Below, in pieces: positions 44,776 to 56,517 of a DNA stretch of 64,000 nt. The translations under genes were made by a program, and so were the position numbers. Source of the stretch: Salinispira sp. (GTDB lineage: Bacteria > Spirochaetota > Spirochaetia > DSM-27196 > Salinispiraceae); contig CBDDDG010000002.1 in the NCBI GenBank assembly GCA_965226555.1, positions 64,001 through 128,000 on the forward strand, read 5' to 3'. The notes beneath the pieces were generated by a model. The model searched no databases, had not been told where the DNA came from, and saw only the letters and a list, made by a program, of their open reading frames with translations. Numbering within the stretch: the first letter of the stretch is position 1; each line of letters opens with the position of its first letter.

Positions 44776-46052
44776 GTCTGTTTCCCATTGTCATTGTCAT
44801 GATTCTCTATTTCTCCAGAATTCCCATTGCCTTTGCGCTTATAGCGGCAGCCCTCGCCTATTTTACCTTCGGGAGTACCGGATCGCCGCCCGATCTTATT
44901 CTCCAGAAATTCATAACCTCCGCATCGTCCTTTCCGCTGCTCGCGGTGCCTTTTTTTATTATGGCGGGTGAAATAATGAATTTCTCGGGAATAAGCGCGA
45001 GCCTTATGAAAATGGCCGATGTTCTGACCGGGCACATGCGGGGCGGGCTGGCTCAGGTGAACGTGGTGCTGAGTACCCTCATGGGGGGAATTTCAGGATC
45101 GGCCAATGCCGATGCGGCCATGCAGTCCAGAATTCTGGTGCCGGAAATGGAAAAGCGGGGCTACGACAAGGCCTTTTCTACGGCCATTACTGCTGCGTCA
45201 TCGGCCATTGCGCCGGTAATTCCTCCGGGGATCAACCTCATTATTTATGCCCTGATCGCCCGGGTATCGGTTGCGGATATGTTTATTGGCGGATATGTGC
45301 CGGGCATTCTTATGTGCGTTTCTCTCATGCTTGCTGTGAGTGTAATCGCCCGGAAGAGGGGCTACATGCCGACGCGTGAGAAAATGAGTTCGCCAATTTC
45401 AATTCTCAGGCAGTTGCGGGAATCGGTGTGGGCACTGCTGCTGCCATTCGGCATTATTCTCGGAATTCGCTTTGGGGTTTTCACGCCGACCGAGGCGGGG
45501 GCAATAGCCGTGCTCTTCTGCACCGTGGTTGGGGTGTTTTTTTACCGGAAACTGAAGTGGAAACATTGGCCCATCATTTTCAAAAACACCGTTCATTCAA
45601 CGAGCACAGTTGTGCTCATTATTGTTGCGGCTGCCGTGTTCGGCCAGTATATGAGCTGGGAGCGCATTCCGCATAATCTGACGCAGTTACTTCTGGGTTT
45701 TGCCGATAGCCCCTGGCTCATGCTCCTGCTCATTAATGTGTTTCTGCTGTTTCTGGGCATGCTGCTTGAGGGCGGGGCGGTGCTGATAATTGTGGCTCCG
45801 CTGCTGGTGCCGGTCATTAAAACCATGGGCATAGATCCTGTTCATTTTGGGCTCATGTTCATTGTGAATATTATGATTGGGGGAATTACGCCGCCCTTCG
45901 GCTCCATGATGTTTACGACATGCAGTATTACGAATGCGCGAATACCGGACTTTGTGCGGGAGGTTCTTCCCTTCATTGCGGCGCTCTTGATCGTGCTGCT
46001 CCTTATTACGTATTTTCCGGGTTTGGCGCTGTTTCTGCCGAACCTGCTGTAG
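44772..46052 (+). CDS. dctM: TRAP large permease
   Basis: LLAVPFFIMAG, GGISGSANAD, FTPTEAG, GITPPFG. Confidence 0.93.
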   Translation: MSLFPIVIVMILYFSRIPIAFALIAAALAYFTFGSTGSPPDLILQKFITSASSFPLLAVPFFIMAGEIMNFSGISASLMKMADVLTGHMRGGLAQVNVVLSTLMGGISGSANADAAMQSRILVPEMEKRGYDKAFSTAITAASSAIAPVIPPGINLIIYALIARVSVADMFIGGYVPGILMCVSLMLAVSVIARKRGYMPTREKMSSPISILRQLRESVWALLLPFGIILGIRFGVFTPTEAGAIAVLFCTVVGVFFYRKLKWKHWPIIFKNTVHSTSTVVLIIVAAAVFGQYMSWERIPHNLTQLLLGFADSPWLMLLLINVFLLFLGMLLEGGAVLIIVAPLLVPVIKTMGIDPVHFGLMFIVNIMIGGITPPFGSMMFTTCSITNARIPDFVREVLPFIAALLIVLLLITYFPGLALFLPNLL

Positions 46053-46062
46053 GAAATTTGTC

Positions 46063-46980
46063 ATGCTGATAATCGGACACAGGGGCTGTTATGACGAGGG
46101 GTATAATCAGAATACCATTCGGGCCATGCGCCATGTAATTGATCGGGGGGCGAGGGCGATTGAATTTGATGTTCAACGGACATCGGATAATGCGCTTGTT
46201 ATTGTGCACGATCTCAATCTTGCCAAAGTATCCACCGGCAGCGGGCTGGTGGCAGAAAGGCCCTTGTCTGAAATTCGGGGGCTTCTGGCGGGCGACCCGA
46301 AGCGGGGGCAGGATCGCATTCCCACGCTGGAGGAGGTTTTCGGGCTGGCGGCTGAATATGCTGCGGAGAATAGGCCGAGGCTGCATGTTGAGCTCAAGGG
46401 ACAGGGAACCGGCGCGCTCGCAGGGAAGTTTATTCGACAGGAGATAGACAGTGCTCGTCTGAGTTCCTTCCTTGTGAGTTCTTTTCTGTGGGATGAGGTA
46501 GATGTATTCCGGATGCATTGCCCCGAGGTGGATATTGCTTTGCTGGCCGGGGCGCTGAATCGTGAACGTCTGCTGGCGGAACAGGAGGGAATTGGGGCAT
46601 GGCTGCCGAAGTTTTTTGCATATCCCGAGGAAAAATTCATGCTGCCGCTAACTGCCAATGCGGAAAAGCTGGAGGCTCTGCTGGCCGGGCATGACTGCCC
46701 TGCTGCCTTTGCTGAGGTCATTAGACGAGAGAACGCCCATGCCTGCAGCGGATCCTCCTATGACCGGCAGCTCGTTGAAGAGGCGGTAAGGCGGGGGGCG
46801 GTGTCTATCAATCTCTGGCATGTGTCGGTGAATAAGGCCATTGTCGATATGGCTCATGCGGCCGGTCTGAAGGTTCTCGCCTATACGGTCAATACTTTTT
46901 CGGATGCCCGGAGGCTTGAGGCGATAGCTGTCGATGGCATTTTCAGCGATCATTACCCGGCAATGCGAGAATTTCTATGA
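46063..46980 (+). CDS. Glycerophosphodiester phosphodiesterase
   Basis: IIGHRG, IEFDVQ.T.D....VHD, IPTLEEV, YTVN, VDGIFSD. Confidence 0.9.
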   Translation: MLIIGHRGCYDEGYNQNTIRAMRHVIDRGARAIEFDVQRTSDNALVIVHDLNLAKVSTGSGLVAERPLSEIRGLLAGDPKRGQDRIPTLEEVFGLAAEYAAENRPRLHVELKGQGTGALAGKFIRQEIDSARLSSFLVSSFLWDEVDVFRMHCPEVDIALLAGALNRERLLAEQEGIGAWLPKFFAYPEEKFMLPLTANAEKLEALLAGHDCPAAFAEVIRRENAHACSGSSYDRQLVEEAVRRGAVSINLWHVSVNKAIVDMAHAAGLKVLAYTVNTFSDARRLEAIAVDGIFSDHYPAMREFL

Positions 46981-49213
46981 GTGTTTCAAAATTACCCCGA
47001 CATTTCTCTCGCGCATTTTCTAATTCTCCAAACGAAACCCCCAGTTTAAACCTGCGTTGGTTCCCATGTCCGCGGTACTTGGGTTTTTCAAAAATTTTTT
47101 GTTTCAGAAGAATAGGTTCTAAAACGTCTTTCTCAAAATTTGGCCATTCATTGCCGAGCTTTGTTTTCAAAATATATTCATTTAGCCCTGTTGACCTCTG
47201 GAAAGCCCGTATAATTTTAAAGAGCTGAGTAATTTTGGGGTCTTCAGTAGGTTTTTCTTTTGTAGGAACGTTCCCAGTTTTTTCATTCATTGGAAACCCT
47301 GTCGTAACTCCATGATCTATAAGAATTGATATAATGGAGCTTCGGTCGTACATTATCTCATCCTGATCATTTCCAATAATTAATTTCTGCGGAATGCTGA
47401 AGTCGTCATTAATGGTCAGTTTCAAATTGCTTCTCTCTTGAGGACTTATAACCGCTTCGCATAACTCACTCGAAGAAAAAGACACATTTTCCAGATATTC
47501 ATTGAATTCCACTCTTTCAATAAAACAGTTTTTAAACTCAATATTGGAGATAGGTACATGCGATAGAGTTTCACCAGAGCAGTACAGCCCATCGATAGTG
47601 AATTTGTTATTATTATTGCGAAGTAAGCGAATAAGCATTGAACAAATATTCTGACTAATGCATGAATGCGTCTCAACAGATTCAGATAGCCTCTGAAGTG
47701 CCGCAATGGCATCCACTTTCTGAGGTTCATATTCTACGTTTATTACATGGCAACATTCATCAATGGTAAAAAGAGGAAGAACTTTTCTGTTTAAAATTTT
47801 TCTGATATTCAGCTCGGAACCTGTCGCAATTGTTTTCGCAATGAATCTACCGAGAAAGTGAAAATAAAATTCATCATGGCAAAATCCATACCTGCCATCT
47901 GCGCCTAAGGTAATGAGAACATGACTCCCTATGAGATTGACACATTGGGTAATTATAGTTGGAGAAAATTTAAGCGATTCACAGTAAAGCTTTGTCAACG
48001 CAATTAAAATATCTTGTTTAATGTTCGTGGAATTTATTATCCATAATTCTTCAGCGAGTGATGTCAACAGTTCTTGGTGTTGTTCAAAGGTTAAAAGAGA
48101 TTCTGACATACTTTCTTTTGGCACCCATTTTTGTGTTTCTCGTTGGAGTATCATTGTAACAAATTCTAAAAATACCTCGCGTTTATTTTTAAAACGATCA
48201 ACGACTGACTGGATATTGCTTCCTAAATCTTCAGATATTTCCTCTACTAATTTTCTGGCTAGAACCGCCCTCGTTAAAATCGGATGATCTGAAACAAGGG
48301 AGTCAGAAAGAGCCTCATAGTATTCTTCAGCCTCTTTTGTATTGAATTCAAATTTTTCCAAAAGAAATACGAGTTGGGTTTTCGTCCACTTGCTTAAAAA
48401 TATTTCAGAAAAAGTAACATCCTTCGTCCGACTAAAACTATCGAGGAATTTCGCCCGCAATTTGAGGTTTGCATAATTATAGTACGCTTTTCGTGCGGCA
48501 AACACCATTGTTCCATTAGAATCCAAGGAATCAAGTAAATTACCCAAAGACGACACCGCATCGCCTTCCATACCCTCAATGGTCATTTCTTCAAATCCAT
48601 CCAAACCAAGAACAATTAGACCCTGTTTTACAAGTTCCAGAAAACTTTCAATGTAATAGCTCCTGAACCGATAAAGGTTTGCCAAAGTGCCAATGATAAT
48701 TTCATCAAGCCGAAGAAATGGCCTGCCGGAAAGGGCTATTGGAACAAACAGCCAATCCGATTTATCTGCCTTAAATAAAGATGCTTGTGTTCGCGCCAGC
48801 GCATTCATTACACTTGTTTTTCCCTCTCCCCCTTCCGATGTCAGATAAATTACATTTGTTGAAAAATATTTTGATGACTGTTTTATTTTTTCCTGTAAAA
48901 AACAAACAGCGTCATCATTGCTTTTTTGTTTACCATTCTCTTTTGCGGGAACGGGTATGATGTGCAGATCATTGGGTGTTTTTTCTAATATGGCTGTTGC
49001 TAAAGTGTCCAAGCGTCCAAGTCGTTTTGATATCCATTTTCTGACAGGCATATCATAGCCATTCTCAACACATCGCAGACCTTCATTGGTTTTTTTCAGC
49101 TCTACGCATATATTTGCACCATCAATATCAAATGATACACCGCGATTATCAGCAATAACATATGAATTATCAGCAAATACCGTAACTATGTCAATAAATT
49201 TTTTTTTGTCCAT
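46943..49213 (-). CDS. NACHT/STAND-like P-loop NTPase
   Basis: Walker A YLTSEGGEGKT, Walker B LIVLGLDGFEE, winged-helix-type YGFCHDEFYFHF motif. Confidence 0.7.
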   Translation of the reverse strand: MDKKKFIDIVTVFADNSYVIADNRGVSFDIDGANICVELKKTNEGLRCVENGYDMPVRKWISKRLGRLDTLATAILEKTPNDLHIIPVPAKENGKQKSNDDAVCFLQEKIKQSSKYFSTNVIYLTSEGGEGKTSVMNALARTQASLFKADKSDWLFVPIALSGRPFLRLDEIIIGTLANLYRFRSYYIESFLELVKQGLIVLGLDGFEEMTIEGMEGDAVSSLGNLLDSLDSNGTMVFAARKAYYNYANLKLRAKFLDSFSRTKDVTFSEIFLSKWTKTQLVFLLEKFEFNTKEAEEYYEALSDSLVSDHPILTRAVLARKLVEEISEDLGSNIQSVVDRFKNKREVFLEFVTMILQRETQKWVPKESMSESLLTFEQHQELLTSLAEELWIINSTNIKQDILIALTKLYCESLKFSPTIITQCVNLIGSHVLITLGADGRYGFCHDEFYFHFLGRFIAKTIATGSELNIRKILNRKVLPLFTIDECCHVINVEYEPQKVDAIAALQRLSESVETHSCISQNICSMLIRLLRNNNNKFTIDGLYCSGETLSHVPISNIEFKNCFIERVEFNEYLENVSFSSSELCEAVISPQERSNLKLTINDDFSIPQKLIIGNDQDEIMYDRSSIISILIDHGVTTGFPMNEKTGNVPTKEKPTEDPKITQLFKIIRAFQRSTGLNEYILKTKLGNEWPNFEKDVLEPILLKQKIFEKPKYRGHGNQRRFKLGVSFGELENAREKCRGNFETLIEILALPGNDR

Positions 49214-50121
49214 TCCATCTACCCCTTAAAAAGTCAATTCTGTATATGTTTCCCTCGGAGCAATACCTCGATAATAATTATGCGTTCTGTCATGAGCTTT
49301 TGCATTGATATGAATTATACTCTTTCCCCGAGAAGCTGTCTGAAACATGGCAGGAATAAAATCATCATCGCTGCTTACAATGGCTATTTCCGAATATTGA
49401 TCTGTCATTGCAAAATGGGCAATATCCATGGAAAGCATAACATCAACCAGTTTTTGTTCATCGTACCAAACTAGTTCAGATGATGGTCGTTTATGATCAC
49501 AACGCCTGCAAACTCCTTTTGTCTGTAATTCTTTCAAATATTCTATGGCTCCCTGCGATGCTTCACAGCACGCATTGGTAATTTTGCACATTCTTAAATG
49601 ACTAAGTCTTTTTCGTCTTCGAAAAGTATGAAGTAAATCAAAAGTTGGTCGAGATGCCTGAGCTTTGGCCAATTCGACGAGAATTATGCGTTGTAATTTT
49701 TCGTTTTCACTGGGATACTCCCTATCAATGATTCTGGCAATGTCCTGCGCCTTCTTTGTCAGGATACTTTCTTCATACCAGCCATCATAAAGTCGAAAAT
49801 GAAGTCTGGATCGTTCAGCCCATTCATCTTGATTTTTCTTTTGTAAATGTGAAGTAATTTTTTCAGCAATGTGATCTATTACAGATGTTAGATCATCAGT
49901 ATTAGTGATGTATAAATTGGCATAATCTACCAGCACAATTATGTTCTTCATTATTTCCACAAGCACAATACAGTGTACCAAATTATGATCGCATCAACAA
50001 GCGTTTGATGACTTCGCGGACATTATTCCCCAGATAGAAATTGATGCCTTCATGATATATAATGGCTTCTAATTTCGGTAGGATGTTGATAATTCTGTTC
50101 CGATCATTACCCGGCAATGCG
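46947..50121. mobile_element. AT-rich islet flanked by 21-bp direct repeats
   Basis: cgatcattacccggcaatgcg at 46947-46967 (3' end of GDPD) and 50101-50121; interior visibly AT-richer than the flanks. Confidence 0.75.
49226..49951 (-). CDS. NYN/LabA (PIN-fold) domain protein with a Cys-rich insert
   Basis: VLVDYANL, RLYDGWY, EQKLVDVMLSMD, IVSSDDDFIP; CC...CRRC insert. Confidence 0.75.
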   Translation of the reverse strand: MKNIIVLVDYANLYITNTDDLTSVIDHIAEKITSHLQKKNQDEWAERSRLHFRLYDGWYEESILTKKAQDIARIIDREYPSENEKLQRIILVELAKAQASRPTFDLLHTFRRRKRLSHLRMCKITNACCEASQGAIEYLKELQTKGVCRRCDHKRPSSELVWYDEQKLVDVMLSMDIAHFAMTDQYSEIAIVSSDDDFIPAMFQTASRGKSIIHINAKAHDRTHNYYRGIAPRETYTELTF

Positions 50122-50143
50122 GGATTTCATGCTATAACTATAA

Positions 50144-50197
50144 CAAAGTTTTGCATTGGAAAATTGTGCTTGCACAATTTCCAGTAGCAAAAGTTTC
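50144..50197. repeat. Nested palindrome upstream of mgtC
   Basis: caaagttttgcattggaaaattgtgc-tt-gcacaatttccagtagcaaaagtttc. Confidence 0.85.
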
Positions 50198-50215: not shown

Positions 50216-50899
50216 ATGGAGATTTTGACAATTATATTACGCATGATGCTGGCGGTCGGGCTTGGCGGGCTGGTGGGTATTGAGCGGGAAAATAAGAGTC
50301 GGCCTGCCGGGTTCAGGACACATATACTTGTTTGTGTTGGATCTGCTCTGGTTATGATTACCTCCGAATATCTGTTTGAGCGCTATGGGGCAGTGACAAA
50401 CATCGATCCGGCTCGGCTCGGCGCGCAGGTAATTAGCGGAATTGGATTTCTCGGGGCAGGGACAATTATCCGCTATAATGCCAATGTGGTGGGGCTGACA
50501 ACGGCGGCCAGTCTATGGGCTGTTGCCTGTGTCGGAATTGCCGTTGGAATCGGCTATTATGAAGCTGCCATTGCCGGGGCGCTTACCATTTTCCTGTCGC
50601 TGATTTTCCTACGAAAATTCGGTCGGGTGCTCACGAAGAACAAGGTTTCGAACATGTCCATTACCATTACTATGGAGAACAAAACGGGCAATATCAGCAG
50701 CATAACTTCAATTCTGGAAAAACAATATATTCGGATAAAGGATATTCGCTTCCACGATTCCGATTCATCTGAAGATGCTGAGTATCTGAAAATTAAATTT
50801 AAGCTCAAACTACCGCCGGGCATGGATGCTGATACTGCAATTAAGATAGCCGGGGGTATTAATGGCGTATTTTCGGTGGAAGAAGGAAAGAGTTTCTAA
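50216..50899 (+). CDS. MgtC/SapB family protein
   Basis: GIERE...PAGFRTH, DPARLGAQVISGIGFLGAG, GLTTAASLW. Confidence 0.93.
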   Translation: MEILTIILRMMLAVGLGGLVGIERENKSRPAGFRTHILVCVGSALVMITSEYLFERYGAVTNIDPARLGAQVISGIGFLGAGTIIRYNANVVGLTTAASLWAVACVGIAVGIGYYEAAIAGALTIFLSLIFLRKFGRVLTKNKVSNMSITITMENKTGNISSITSILEKQYIRIKDIRFHDSDSSEDAEYLKIKFKLKLPPGMDADTAIKIAGGINGVFSVEEGKSF

Positions 50900-52419: not shown

Positions 52420-52545
52420 GAAACTTTTGCATTGGAAAATTGCGCTTGCGCAATTTCCAGTAGCAAAAGTTTCCGATCTGGAATGCTTTCTTTGTGCTTA
52501 GCATTCTCCTATTTTATAGAAAGTTTTGCATTTTGCAAAACTTTC
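52420..52545. repeat. Full intergenic composite palindromic element (~126 bp)
   Basis: Nested hairpin + spacer + short hairpin; same architecture as Rpn insert 3, in reverse orientation. Confidence 0.85.
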
Positions 52546-53398: not shown

Positions 53399-54523
53399 TT
53401 AATGCGATCCGTTCCGCACTGTCCGCATTTCCTCATCGCTCAGCCCGGTAATTCTCTGAACAGCCTCGGTCGACAACCCTTCCAAAAACATACTGCGGGC
53501 GTTTTTTCTCCGCTCCTCAATATGCCCCTCCGCGCGACCTGTCTGTAGTCCTTCCTGCCGACCTGTTTGCAATCCTGTCTGTAGGCCTTCCTGCCGACCT
53601 TCTTCACGGCCTTCCTGCCGACCTGTTTGCAATCCTTCCTGCCGACCTGTCTGAAGTCCTGTCTGCAATCCTTCTTCACGACCTGTCCGCAGTCCTTCCT
53701 GCCGACCCATTTCCGCAATGTGCGCTCTGAATGTTTCCGCATTCATTCTGAACATTTTCGCTACCTCCTTACCTCTCGGTTCTTTTGTTCTTTCTAACTG
53801 GTTCATTAACGTGTCAAAGTCTATAACAATTCCGAACATTGAATCTACCACGCCGACAAATTCCTCTATCAGCTCCAGCGATTCTTCATTCAGCATTTCT
53901 GCTATCGCGTTCTCCACCTTCCGAATGTCCCAATCCGTATTCAGCAGATTTTTCGAGTACAGATCAAGGTACATAACAGCCGCAAACATTCTTCCCCGCT
54001 GCTGCAACTGCTCCGCAGAATAATCGTTCTCACTTATCAGATCGTAGGGAAAGGGGGCAAGATACTGCGGGAATTCCCGCTTCCGTTGCTCTCTGACATT
54101 CCCGGGCACCTTCCATTTTCTCGTACCATTATAGAATACAATGGGCAGAAATACCAACTCGCAGTCATCGGGAATTGCGCCGGAGCGGTGAATGTTCCGA
54201 TAGAGCAGATTCGTATATTCCGACATGCGGAGGGGCATGTCTTTGTCCACTCCGGACTGATGCTCAAGGAGCACATAGATAGCAACATCTCCCGTGTGAT
54301 CCCGACTCCTGATTTTGCAGACAATGTCGGCCATCCGTGTTTTTGCATGGTCAATGAAAAAGGTACCGTTTTCAATGGTTATGTCCTCGGTTCGCAATTT
54401 TTTCGTCCATGCGCCTCCGACAAAGCGTTGAAGAAATTGGAGCATTATTGCGGGTTGGAACAGCAGGGAGCGGTAGCCTTGGTCGTAGGGAACGGGGGCG
54501 GGTTTTTCTTTGAAATCGATCAT
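53399..54523 (-). CDS. Rpn subfamily A, copy 6 (374 aa)
   Basis: Paralog; leader lacks the palindrome. Confidence 0.9.
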   Translation of the reverse strand: MIDFKEKPAPVPYDQGYRSLLFQPAIMLQFLQRFVGGAWTKKLRTEDITIENGTFFIDHAKTRMADIVCKIRSRDHTGDVAIYVLLEHQSGVDKDMPLRMSEYTNLLYRNIHRSGAIPDDCELVFLPIVFYNGTRKWKVPGNVREQRKREFPQYLAPFPYDLISENDYSAEQLQQRGRMFAAVMYLDLYSKNLLNTDWDIRKVENAIAEMLNEESLELIEEFVGVVDSMFGIVIDFDTLMNQLERTKEPRGKEVAKMFRMNAETFRAHIAEMGRQEGLRTGREEGLQTGLQTGRQEGLQTGRQEGREEGRQEGLQTGLQTGRQEGLQTGRAEGHIEERRKNARSMFLEGLSTEAVQRITGLSDEEMRTVRNGSH

Positions 54524-54976
54524 ATAATCCTCCTGAACGTTTCTTTCTGAATAGGGGAGCTCCCATGGCGACATGGTCCCATGGTGAATTCTCCCCTCTA
54601 TATATGTGACGGGTAAAAAGTCATTTTTGATTGTGTTTTTTGAAAGAATTTTGCAAAATTTGTGAATTTTTTTCAGGGAGTCGGGAATGGGGGGCTGGTA
54701 TGCTCTGTATCGATACGATCTATGCTCCCGGGAACAATGCTCAGCGCGAGGTTTTTGTAAAAAGTTTCTATTATTTTGAGATATTGACCTAACCCCGCCG
54801 CTTGGGCGAGCCGGATGCTTGGGCGAGCAGGCGTGCAACGCCGATCAACCCAGGAGGTGCAAGCCTCCGACCAGCCCGGCTGCATGGCGAGCAGCGCGGA
54901 AGCGCGACCAGCCCCCGCGCCTGCCTGAGTTGAATTGCCGCTTCTCAATAGTTACTGCGGGCTATGGGTTATGAAA

Positions 54977-56517
54977 CTAATACCATGACGGAAAATTTGG
55001 TTGCACCCCATCAGTCATGGTATCCGTATCCACAGCAGCCAGGCCGGAACCCGTAAACATACCGTTTTTGGTTCCAGTGTATTTGCCATTGTCATTGAGC
55101 TTGTTGCCAGTTTCGGGCGTCCAATGTGCTTTCCACTCCTCAAGATCACCGGTAAATGCGCGTGCAAAATAGAACATAGAGCCCATAGTCGTTACCGAAC
55201 TGACATCCCAACCGGAAATGTTGCCATTGAATGCGTTTGCGTTAGAGAACATAAAGCGCATATCCGTTACCGCGCTGACATTCCAACCCGAGATATTGCC
55301 ATTGAATGCGCTTGCGCTATTGAACATATTGGACATATTCGTTACCGTGCTGACATCCCAACTGGAAATGTCGCCATTGAATGCAGTTTTATCCTTGAAC
55401 ATCTCGGACATGTCCGTTACTGCCGTGGTAACAATGTAGTTGAGATTGGCAGTATTGCCCCAAGTATCTATCCCTTCAGTTACCGCTGTTTTCAGTTCAT
55501 CATTATCTTGAGGACTCAGGGTAACAGAGAACTTTTCGGTGGCAAACAGTTCGATTCCTCCGTCTGCGCCCGATACCTCATATGTTCCGGGGCTTGTATG
55601 TGCGGTAACCATAATAATTCCGGTAGTTTCATCAACTGTCGGGAGGGCGACATCTGCGGGTGTCGTTGGGGTGGTGACCGCAGCCAAAGTAACGGTTGGA
55701 TTATTCGCATTGATAATTGCGTCATCAATATCATCCGAAAGAATGACGGATACTGCCGTACCCGCGGGAACCTCTGTCGCAACAGTCGGCAGTATTGCTG
55801 TTGCGGGTTCAGACCATGAACCACCGTAAATGCCGTTGACCGCACGCACCTGCACATCGTAGCTGGCGCCGTTTGTCAGCCCCATAATGGTATCGGTGGT
55901 GGTATCGGCATCAGTTGTCCGCTGAGTAACAGCGGGAGCATCCGTCCAGAGATCAGAGGTCAGCTTATACTCCAGTTCATATCCGGTAATGTCGCTGCCT
56001 TCATTGTATGGAGCTGTCCATTTCACCGTCAGACGACCATTACCGAGTATAACCAGTATTGCAGGAGCGGCAGCAGTTATGACCAGTTCACCTGTTGCGG
56101 ATTCAGACCAGGGGCCATTGCCAATGTCATTGACAGCACGTACCTGTACGCGGTAACTGATTTTTTTGTGTGTTAGTGGGGTTATGGTGTAGCTGGTGTG
56201 TGTTCCGATGTCGGAGATAATTTCCGTCCATGTGGTTCCGCCGTCTGAGCTATGGCGCAGATGATAGGCGGTAATTTCGCCATCGCCGCTTTTTTCCGGC
56301 GGAATCCAGCTAACCGTTAGTTGATCATTCCCCGCTACAAGGGTTGGAGCAGCCATGGTGCCCGGCGTCATTGGTTCCGGTTCCGTCATTGGATCGGGTT
56401 TTGGCGTTGGATCGGGGTCCATGTCCATCACTGGACATCCGGCAAGCAGCGCAATGAACATTGCGCATAATAGGAAGAGGGTTACCCCCCCTTTTTTTTC
56501 AATAACGTAGTTCGCAT
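54977..56517 (-). CDS. FN3 + BspA/DUF285 lipoprotein copy 4, frameshifted at an A8G7 tract in the signal peptide
   Basis: GAGGT + ATG 56517 reads MRTTLLKKKGG-stop; +1 nt (or a -1 ribosomal shift) joins ...VTLFLLCAMFIALLAGC. Confidence 0.85.

Follow-up and report, generated by a model that had tools for sequence, protein, structure and literature searches.

A stretch of 64,000 nucleotides from Salinispira sp. (contig CBDDDG010000002.1, positions 64,001 to 128,000), hereafter the window, carries a two-gene insert encoding a predicted nuclease of the NYN family and a NACHT-type NTPase. The NYN gene (49951-49226, minus strand, 241 aa) and the NTPase gene (49213-46943, minus strand, 756 aa) are separated by a gap of 12 bp (49214-49225) and are the only open reading frames (ORFs) of the insert, with no integrase among them. 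The insert is AT-rich, with a GC content of 37.1% as compared with 47.2% for the genome, and is bounded by two copies of a 21-bp repeat. The initial annotation of this DNA had described this layout, and the coordinates and composition agree with it; it had also proposed that the pair is a candidate defence system in which a sensor NTPase works with a separately encoded effector. Our analysis suggests that the pair is likely an unnamed anti-virus defence.

The NYN protein (49226..49951, minus strand) matches PF01936 with an E-value of 1.3e-9 (39.2 bits, cut-off 24.2). Its structural model, with a predicted local distance difference test score (pLDDT) of 92, aligns best with the NYN domain of Marf1 (VIA Z 12.8, root mean square deviation (rmsd) 3.0, 139 residues aligned) and next with VPA0982 (VIA Z 11.6), both well above the rows that follow. 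Four aspartates, D9, D170, D195 and D197, which we take to be the catalytic residues of the NYN family, are kept in all 65 paired homologues and in 74-75 of the 75 members of a larger set. Profile, motif and fold thus agree on the NYN (PIN-fold) identity first assigned to this protein, and family knowledge leads us to predict that it is a metal-dependent RNase. The CC..CRRC insert noted earlier was also found (C128-C129 and C148-R-R-C151). It belongs to a cysteine-rich region (~aa 110-165, with C122, C128, C129, C148 and C151; 49457..49624, minus strand), and all 65 family members have four to six cysteines between T109 and Q166, which is the basis for predicting a zinc site at this position.

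The NTPase (46943..49213, minus strand) is predicted to be a STAND NTPase composed of an N-domain, an NBD-HD1-WHD-HD2 module, a pentapeptide beta-helix and a winged helix. A Foldseek search with its AlphaFold2 model (pLDDT 90) retrieved NOD2, NLRC4 and NLRP proteins with E-values of about 1e-10 (7e-11). Fold alignment confirmed the presence of the NBD-HD1-WHD-HD2 fold, the alignments with NLRP3 (VIA Z 14.3, rmsd 4.1, 380 aligned) and NOD2 (VIA Z 14.2, rmsd 4.1, 407 aligned) being followed by those with TnsC (VIA Z 11.7, 223 aligned) and AVAST5 (VIA Z 11.1, 183 aligned). A search of a viral structure library gave only generic NLR/AAA matches. The Walker A (SEGGEGKT, aa 126-133) and Walker B (DGFEE, aa 205-209) motifs, at 48587..48838 (minus strand), contain residues G129, G131, K132, D205, G206, E208 and E209, which are invariant in the 100 near full-length proteins among the 101 homologues found. 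The pattern DG[FY]EE is likewise present in all 100 homologues and in all 65 paired members. According to the available part of Kibby et al. (10.1101/2022.07.19.500537), the NACHT Walker B signature is D[GAS]hDE, with a small residue after the aspartate and then two acidic ones; DGFEE fits this wording, with a glutamate for the first aspartate of the acidic pair. The window NTPase itself has no Pfam match, PF05729 included, and no PADLOC or PHROG match. Within the family, PF05729 was detected in 5 of 65 members at E<=0.01 and nSTAND_NTPase5 in 17 of 65. By the tests run, we consider the window proteins to be a NACHT protein and an NYN protein; for the NTPase too, profile, motif and fold agree with the identity first proposed.

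On either side of the NACHT module, the minus strand encodes further domains. The first ~85 residues (48959..49213) form a family-specific alpha/beta domain, which may be the docking site of the NYN protein. A full profile scan with this N-domain returned 228 clusters, and among the 150 listed nearly all belonged to the same family or to its fragments. PDB profile, Pfam and Atlas searches gave neither an assignment nor a recognised effector for this domain, which the initial annotation had already described as unassigned. The long C-terminal region, first noted in the same terms, can now be read as a pentapeptide-repeat beta-helix (~aa 535-620, 47354..47611) followed by a predicted winged helix, and both are candidate sensors. 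The family profile of the repeat region matches McbG, Qnr and MfpA (E 2e-9 to 2e-5), and Pentapeptide_4 was detected in 52 of 65 members at E<=0.01, the window NTPase not being one of them. The last domain (~aa 655-750, 46964..47251) is an alpha/beta domain whose predicted secondary structure suggests a winged helix that may bind nucleic acids. Its residues R669, R673 and R721 are conserved in 61, 62 and 59 of the 65 members, respectively, and a GxG wing is present. Winged-helix Pfam matches to this domain were weak and came from single members only, and PDB profile, Pfam and Atlas searches with the N- and C-domains yielded no usable assignment.

That the two genes should be conserved together had been set as a test beforehand, and the association proved to be strict from both directions. 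Of 80 genome loci retrieved with the NTPase, 77 have the NYN gene immediately upstream of the NTPase gene; the three misses are explained by the edge of a contig, a broken copy and an NTPase that stands alone. Conversely, of 80 metagenome loci retrieved with the NYN protein, 77 have the NTPase gene immediately downstream (76 detected by script and L160 by eye; the 80 loci fall into 67 clusters). Two of the misses in this set have no room for an NTPase gene and one has 210 bp. Pairwise distances of the NYN and NTPase proteins are correlated (r=0.80, 0 of 2000 permutations), which at the level of sequences shows co-inheritance of the pair, not binding. The paired alignments (A3 and A4) exclude 13 loci whose genes are partial or split and 3 that lack NYN. 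The only recurrent third genes near the pair encode type I restriction-modification (RM) subunits and ABC transporter ATPases. One candidate for a fused form, P0179, was rejected as a repeat-protein artefact.

The pair is patchily distributed and has spread horizontally. Record titles of the loci found from the NTPase cover more than a dozen phyla, and a scan of 185,579 species genomes gave 158 matches. The pair was found in none of the 400 genomes sampled in the host phylum, and a single query (L065) had no match in 5,426 Escherichia coli genomes, 72,556 plasmids or cultured phages. Each genome here carries one copy, and the GC content of the pair is below that of the flanking DNA in 78 of 79 loci (one of the 80, with short flanks, being excluded). 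A family this small, with no match to that query in any of the three collections, would be missed by screens centred on E. coli. The pair is directly testable, since carriers have been cultured (Pseudomonas sp. GM41, Mucilaginibacter, Dyadobacter and Polaromonas).

Genomic context links part of these loci to defence and to phages. An hsdS gene is located at most 6 kb from the pair in 10 of 80 loci, with 0.38 (scored matches) or 0.98 (all first-look candidates) expected in the same genomes, and at L071 the pair is inserted between hsdS and hsdR. The NTPase is present in five prophage contigs; the four with room show the NYN gene as well, and two have the NTPase beside tail-fibre genes. In L195 and L192, it is surrounded by tail-fibre and baseplate genes of the opposite orientation, and in L191 it lies beside a portal gene. 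When the nearest two genes on each side are considered, a clear RM or named-system gene is present in 18 of 80 loci and a candidate in 8 more, a count that is our reading of mixed Pfam and PADLOC matches. The proposal of a candidate defence system is thus supported by the linkage to type I RM and by prophage carriage; it is not supported by a general enrichment of defence genes among the neighbours.

Some of these loci have peculiar arrangements. In L195 (5400-11595), the pair is enclosed by two genes for tail-fibre assembly and neighbours a DNA invertase. The baseplate-wedge ORF adjoining it is short and continues into a tail-fibre end, and NYN carries a frameshift. In L042 (5924-9082), the pair directly follows a gene for an HmaC-like ATPase (PADLOC E 1e-171), possibly within a Hma system.

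The pair is a real and conserved unit, and we consider it probable that it is defensive and works by one of two mechanisms, restraint of the nuclease or its activation by clustering. Its folds, intact motifs and strict pairing support the original idea of a sensor with a separately encoded effector, which stands as a prediction. In the restraint mechanism, the NTPase would bind the predicted RNase and hold it in check, probably through the family-specific N-domain. A phage cue, possibly sensed by the pentapeptide and winged-helix end, would flip the nucleotide switch of the NTPase; the freed NYN protein would then cut cellular or phage RNA, and the infected cell would presumably stop. Such an abortive restraint-and-release mechanism against phages is the one we favour, with chances that seem to us evenly balanced. 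The complete version, a split NLR that acts as both sensor and antitoxin, with the zinc-finger NYN protein held on the N-domain, phage nucleic acid sensed directly by the C-terminal end and the RNase released, is a doubtful proposal that we make tentatively. Each component has precedents, at least in the accessible parts of the reports concerned: NACHT proteins with an intact Walker A motif defend against phages (10.1101/2022.07.19.500537), and PIN RNases are required in the DS-3 and DS-5 systems (PMC13092281).

The pattern of broken genes bears on which partner controls the other. In 6 of 78 loci, an intact NTPase gene is accompanied by a damaged NYN gene or by none (one insertion, one truncation, one absence and three partial or frameshifted genes). 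In the reverse situation, no NTPase gene was found broken beside NYN in the 52 NYN-selected loci with room, where 6-12 cases would be predicted from gene length (3, 28 and 1 loci with short flanks were excluded from these lesion counts). The single broken NTPase, at L072, belongs to the other set; it has lost approximately residues 440-664 and retains the N-domain and the nucleotide-binding part. This asymmetry leans towards an NTPase that restrains a harmful NYN protein.

Several observations weigh against a defensive pair working by restraint and release. The lesion asymmetry compares two different collections and does not reach significance without length scaling (p=0.08, or p=0.27 on the three unambiguous lesions). 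No fusion of the two proteins was detected in a search of longer proteins, itself a weak one, or among 133 new proteins from the N-domain profile scan. Most loci, including that of the window, stand alone between housekeeping genes. PADLOC matches are not significantly enriched among nearest neighbours (37 of 191) relative to random genes (23 of 147; Fisher p=0.39), a control taken from the window genome (regions L091-L110), which is unusually defence-rich and not matched to the other hosts; linkage to hsdS was for this reason also assessed against the genomes of the hosts themselves. Finally, deletion of the partner gene in DS-5 did not release PIN toxicity, as reported in the accessible text of PMC13092281. 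The window genome is itself very rich in defence genes, the 23 of 147 random proteins mentioned above matching PADLOC at E<=1e-15.

Alternatively, the pair could play the same anti-phage role in the manner of an inflammasome, the NYN protein being inactive alone and switched on by clustering on the N-domains of a triggered, oligomerised NACHT protein. The module indeed aligns with NLRP3, NOD2 and NLRC4 from NBD to HD2, and NACHT domains typically oligomerise and activate an N-terminal effector, according to the accessible part of PMC13092281. The same text indicates that DS-5 requires both genes and yet is not a toxin-antitoxin system. However, intact NYN genes beside broken NTPase genes should then be common and harmless, and none was seen in the 52 loci, a weak result. 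We regard activation by clustering as possible, if somewhat unlikely.

A selfish addiction or anti-plasmid module, in which a cell that loses the NTPase is exposed to a toxic RNase and phages elicit no response, would also account for the lesion asymmetry, the lone insertions between housekeeping genes and the lack of a general defence enrichment. Nevertheless, a regulated NTPase of 756 aa with sensor-type repeats far exceeds the needs of an antitoxin, and the linkage to hsdS, the carriage by prophages and the lack of a match in 72,556 plasmids also speak against such a module, which we consider improbable. A housekeeping or stress-related role in RNA processing, unrelated to conflict, could be imagined since RNA-processing enzymes such as Marf1, the best fold match, have NYN domains; the pair is, however, patchy and foreign everywhere, often decayed, and found in prophages and RM operons, which makes such a role very improbable.

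The origin of the insert can be partly read from its borders. The left copy of the repeat (46947..46967) starts directly past the last conserved helix of the NTPase, which ends at L749, and its minus strand encodes residues A750-R756. The stop codon (46943-46945) is located just beyond the repeat and within the GDPD gene (46063..46980, plus strand, 305 aa; PF03009, E 8e-31), as stated in the initial annotation, so that the NTPase takes its stop from GDPD antisense DNA. Conversely, the codon map shows that the present end of the GDPD gene, its last three residues and stop (EFL*), is antisense to the last NTPase helix. The right copy (50101-50121) reads on as DFML*, the end of a sequence (DHYPAMRDFML*; 50101..50137, plus strand) that we infer to be the original GDPD terminus, the 21 bp being duplicated host DNA. 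The two copies are perfect over 21 bp and 93% identical over 27 nt, and a seeded scan of the 2.98-Mb genome (<=3 mismatches) found no other exact copy and one further site, with 2 mismatches, on another contig. The perfect repeat and its correspondence to the 3' end of the GDPD gene are thus as first described. Similar six bases after each copy perhaps aided the duplication. In run X3, a loose end of 24 nt at the right copy of the repeat was considered as a possible second insertion; it proved to come from within a multicopy element, with 6 bases shared at the join.

The assembly is sound, since a public contig, near-identical to the window and possibly the same DNA, covers positions 46000-50140 without a break, and a strain ~98% identical, from another study, has the same insert with the same left junction bridging GDPD and NTPase. 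In addition, a Salinispira sp. NTPase 95% identical to that of the window ends with the same seven residues. The search for an empty site, suggested by the initial annotation, was unsuccessful for this locus, none being found in 30 relatives, of which none is close. A joint skipping the insert was not found in contigs of 7 public runs, contigs being able to show presence and not absence, and the repeat core was not found in viral contigs.

The repeat marks the boundary of the insert at this locus, as first proposed, and does not do so in general. Direct repeats flank 8 of 72 loci, that of the window included (8 of the 80 loci, with short flanks, being excluded), as compared with 4 of 124 in a weaker control; those at the 8 loci range from 26 to 373 bp and are mutually unrelated. 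In L067 (compared with L063 and L073), L033 and L036, the pair is flanked by duplicated host-gene segments of 118-373 bp with 70-89% identity, as expected for an arrival by homologous recombination with neighbouring DNA. L003 contains a divergent second pair that the near-identical L013 cleanly lacks, and this insertion shows no duplication. This sister pair (L003:14812-17773, minus strand) consists of a 208-aa NYN protein without the cysteine insert and a 780-aa NTPase, which is 26% identical and has the Walker B motif DGFDE; it suggests that a second, wider clade exists in which the zinc insert is dispensable. Other AT-rich islets are located between direct repeats in the window genome (G000:C21:299273-303680, G000:C24:9455-28575 and G000:C25:14083-22396), with cargo genes that resemble, as judged by eye, GmrSD/DUF262 and type III RM. 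The 21-bp repeat was probably host sequence duplicated when this copy was recombined in, rather than an element-borne attachment site. Since repeats are few, L003 has no duplication and other cargo is likewise flanked by repeats, the pair can be viewed as cargo moved by several routes, without fixed ends. An autonomous mobile element, with a TnsC-like NTPase and a nuclease cutting DNA for insertion and so producing the 21-bp duplication, would be consistent with two-gene islets lacking an integrase, with the clean empty site of the second pair in L013 and with the presence of TnsC among the fold matches. It is, however, the least probable of all the explanations considered, and the absence of conserved ends already tells against it; moreover, the NLR folds match better and over twice the length, the few direct repeats are unrelated, the L003 insertion left no duplication, each genome here has a single copy, and other cargo of the window genome is also found between short repeats.

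Among described proteins, bacterial NACHT proteins (bNACHTs) share with the window NTPase the Walker A lysine, a small residue followed by two acidic ones after the Walker B aspartate, and a patchy spread; pentapeptide repeats, found here by profile and model, are among the bNACHT C-terminal domains listed in the accessible part of Kibby et al. (10.1101/2022.07.19.500537). There, each bNACHT is described as a single protein of three parts with the effector fused at its N-terminus; bNACHTs are only rarely located in operons, which are poorly conserved. In contrast, the effector here is encoded by a separate, strictly linked NYN gene and the fused one is absent; the ~85-aa N-domain is family-specific and without a recognised effector; the Walker B motif is DGFEE instead of D[GAS]hDE; and an extra predicted winged helix follows the repeats. 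NYN and PIN are not mentioned in the main text of Kibby et al., whose supplementary tables may list this clade. In the part of the DefensePredictor text available (PMC13092281), DS-8 also has a NACHT domain, and the window NTPase has a weak NCBIfam match to it (25 bits vs. a cut-off of 790), but DS-8 is a single protein that also has a metallophosphatase. PIN RNases are used by DS-3 and by the two-gene system DS-5, neither of which has an NTPase, and NYN is not mentioned in that text.

The NYN core matches the PADLOC candidate HEC-09 weakly (E 6e-6; 16 of 75 members), over only ~70 residues of a 203-position model, whereas the NTPase is matched by no PADLOC model. PARIS (AriA/AriB) and PrrC follow a logic similar to that of the pair, an NTPase controlling a tRNA-type nuclease until a phage cue is received, and PrrC is encoded inside a type I RM operon, as is the pair in some loci. 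However, their NTPases are ABC ATPases associated with nucleases of the TOPRIM or HEPN type, which share no homology with the NACHT and NYN proteins of the pair. Avs/AVAST proteins are STAND NTPases that sense phages; they have fused effectors and TPR sensors and belong to a different STAND branch, and the window NTPase has no PADLOC match to them. By analogy, the pair would work most like a bNACHT with its effector in a gene of its own or, in its logic, like PARIS. No named system was matched above cut-off in PADLOC 2.0, NCBIfam 20 or PHROG; the comparison with named systems proposed at the outset brought up only the weak matches to HEC-09 and DS-8, neither of them exact. Our literature search, with most subscription papers and the supplements of Kibby et al. 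outside its coverage, found no description of the pair, nor is it described in the accessible parts of PMC10853773, PMC8195603 and 10.64898/2026.10.19.760177.

The pair is not categorically new, both domains being already known parts of defence systems. Bacterial NLR-like proteins described so far have their effector as a fused domain. If our interpretation is correct, a compact and invariant two-gene form with an RNase in trans would be a simple model of an NLR switch controlling a separate enzyme, and the reading as a split sensor and antitoxin would define a class of NLRs that act through an effector in trans and are triggered by nucleic acid. Animal NLRs use caspases as separate enzymes.

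The surroundings of the insert are less informative. A promoter scan gave no signal above chance. GDPD homologues were not detected at E<=1e-30 in 7 other genomes of the family, and the target gene may therefore be lineage-specific. The right flank is occupied by a host gene of the mgtC family (50216..50899, plus strand; PF02308, E 1.5e-41). A palindrome of 53 nt, present to the right of the insert at 50145-50197 and again at 52421-52473, is a genome-wide repeat with 304 distinct sites of at least 30 nt. Further downstream, the minus strand of the window encodes an Rpn/YhgA-like protein with a C-terminal tail of short repeats (53399-54838) and a protein combining DUF285 and fibronectin-III domains (54977-56461).

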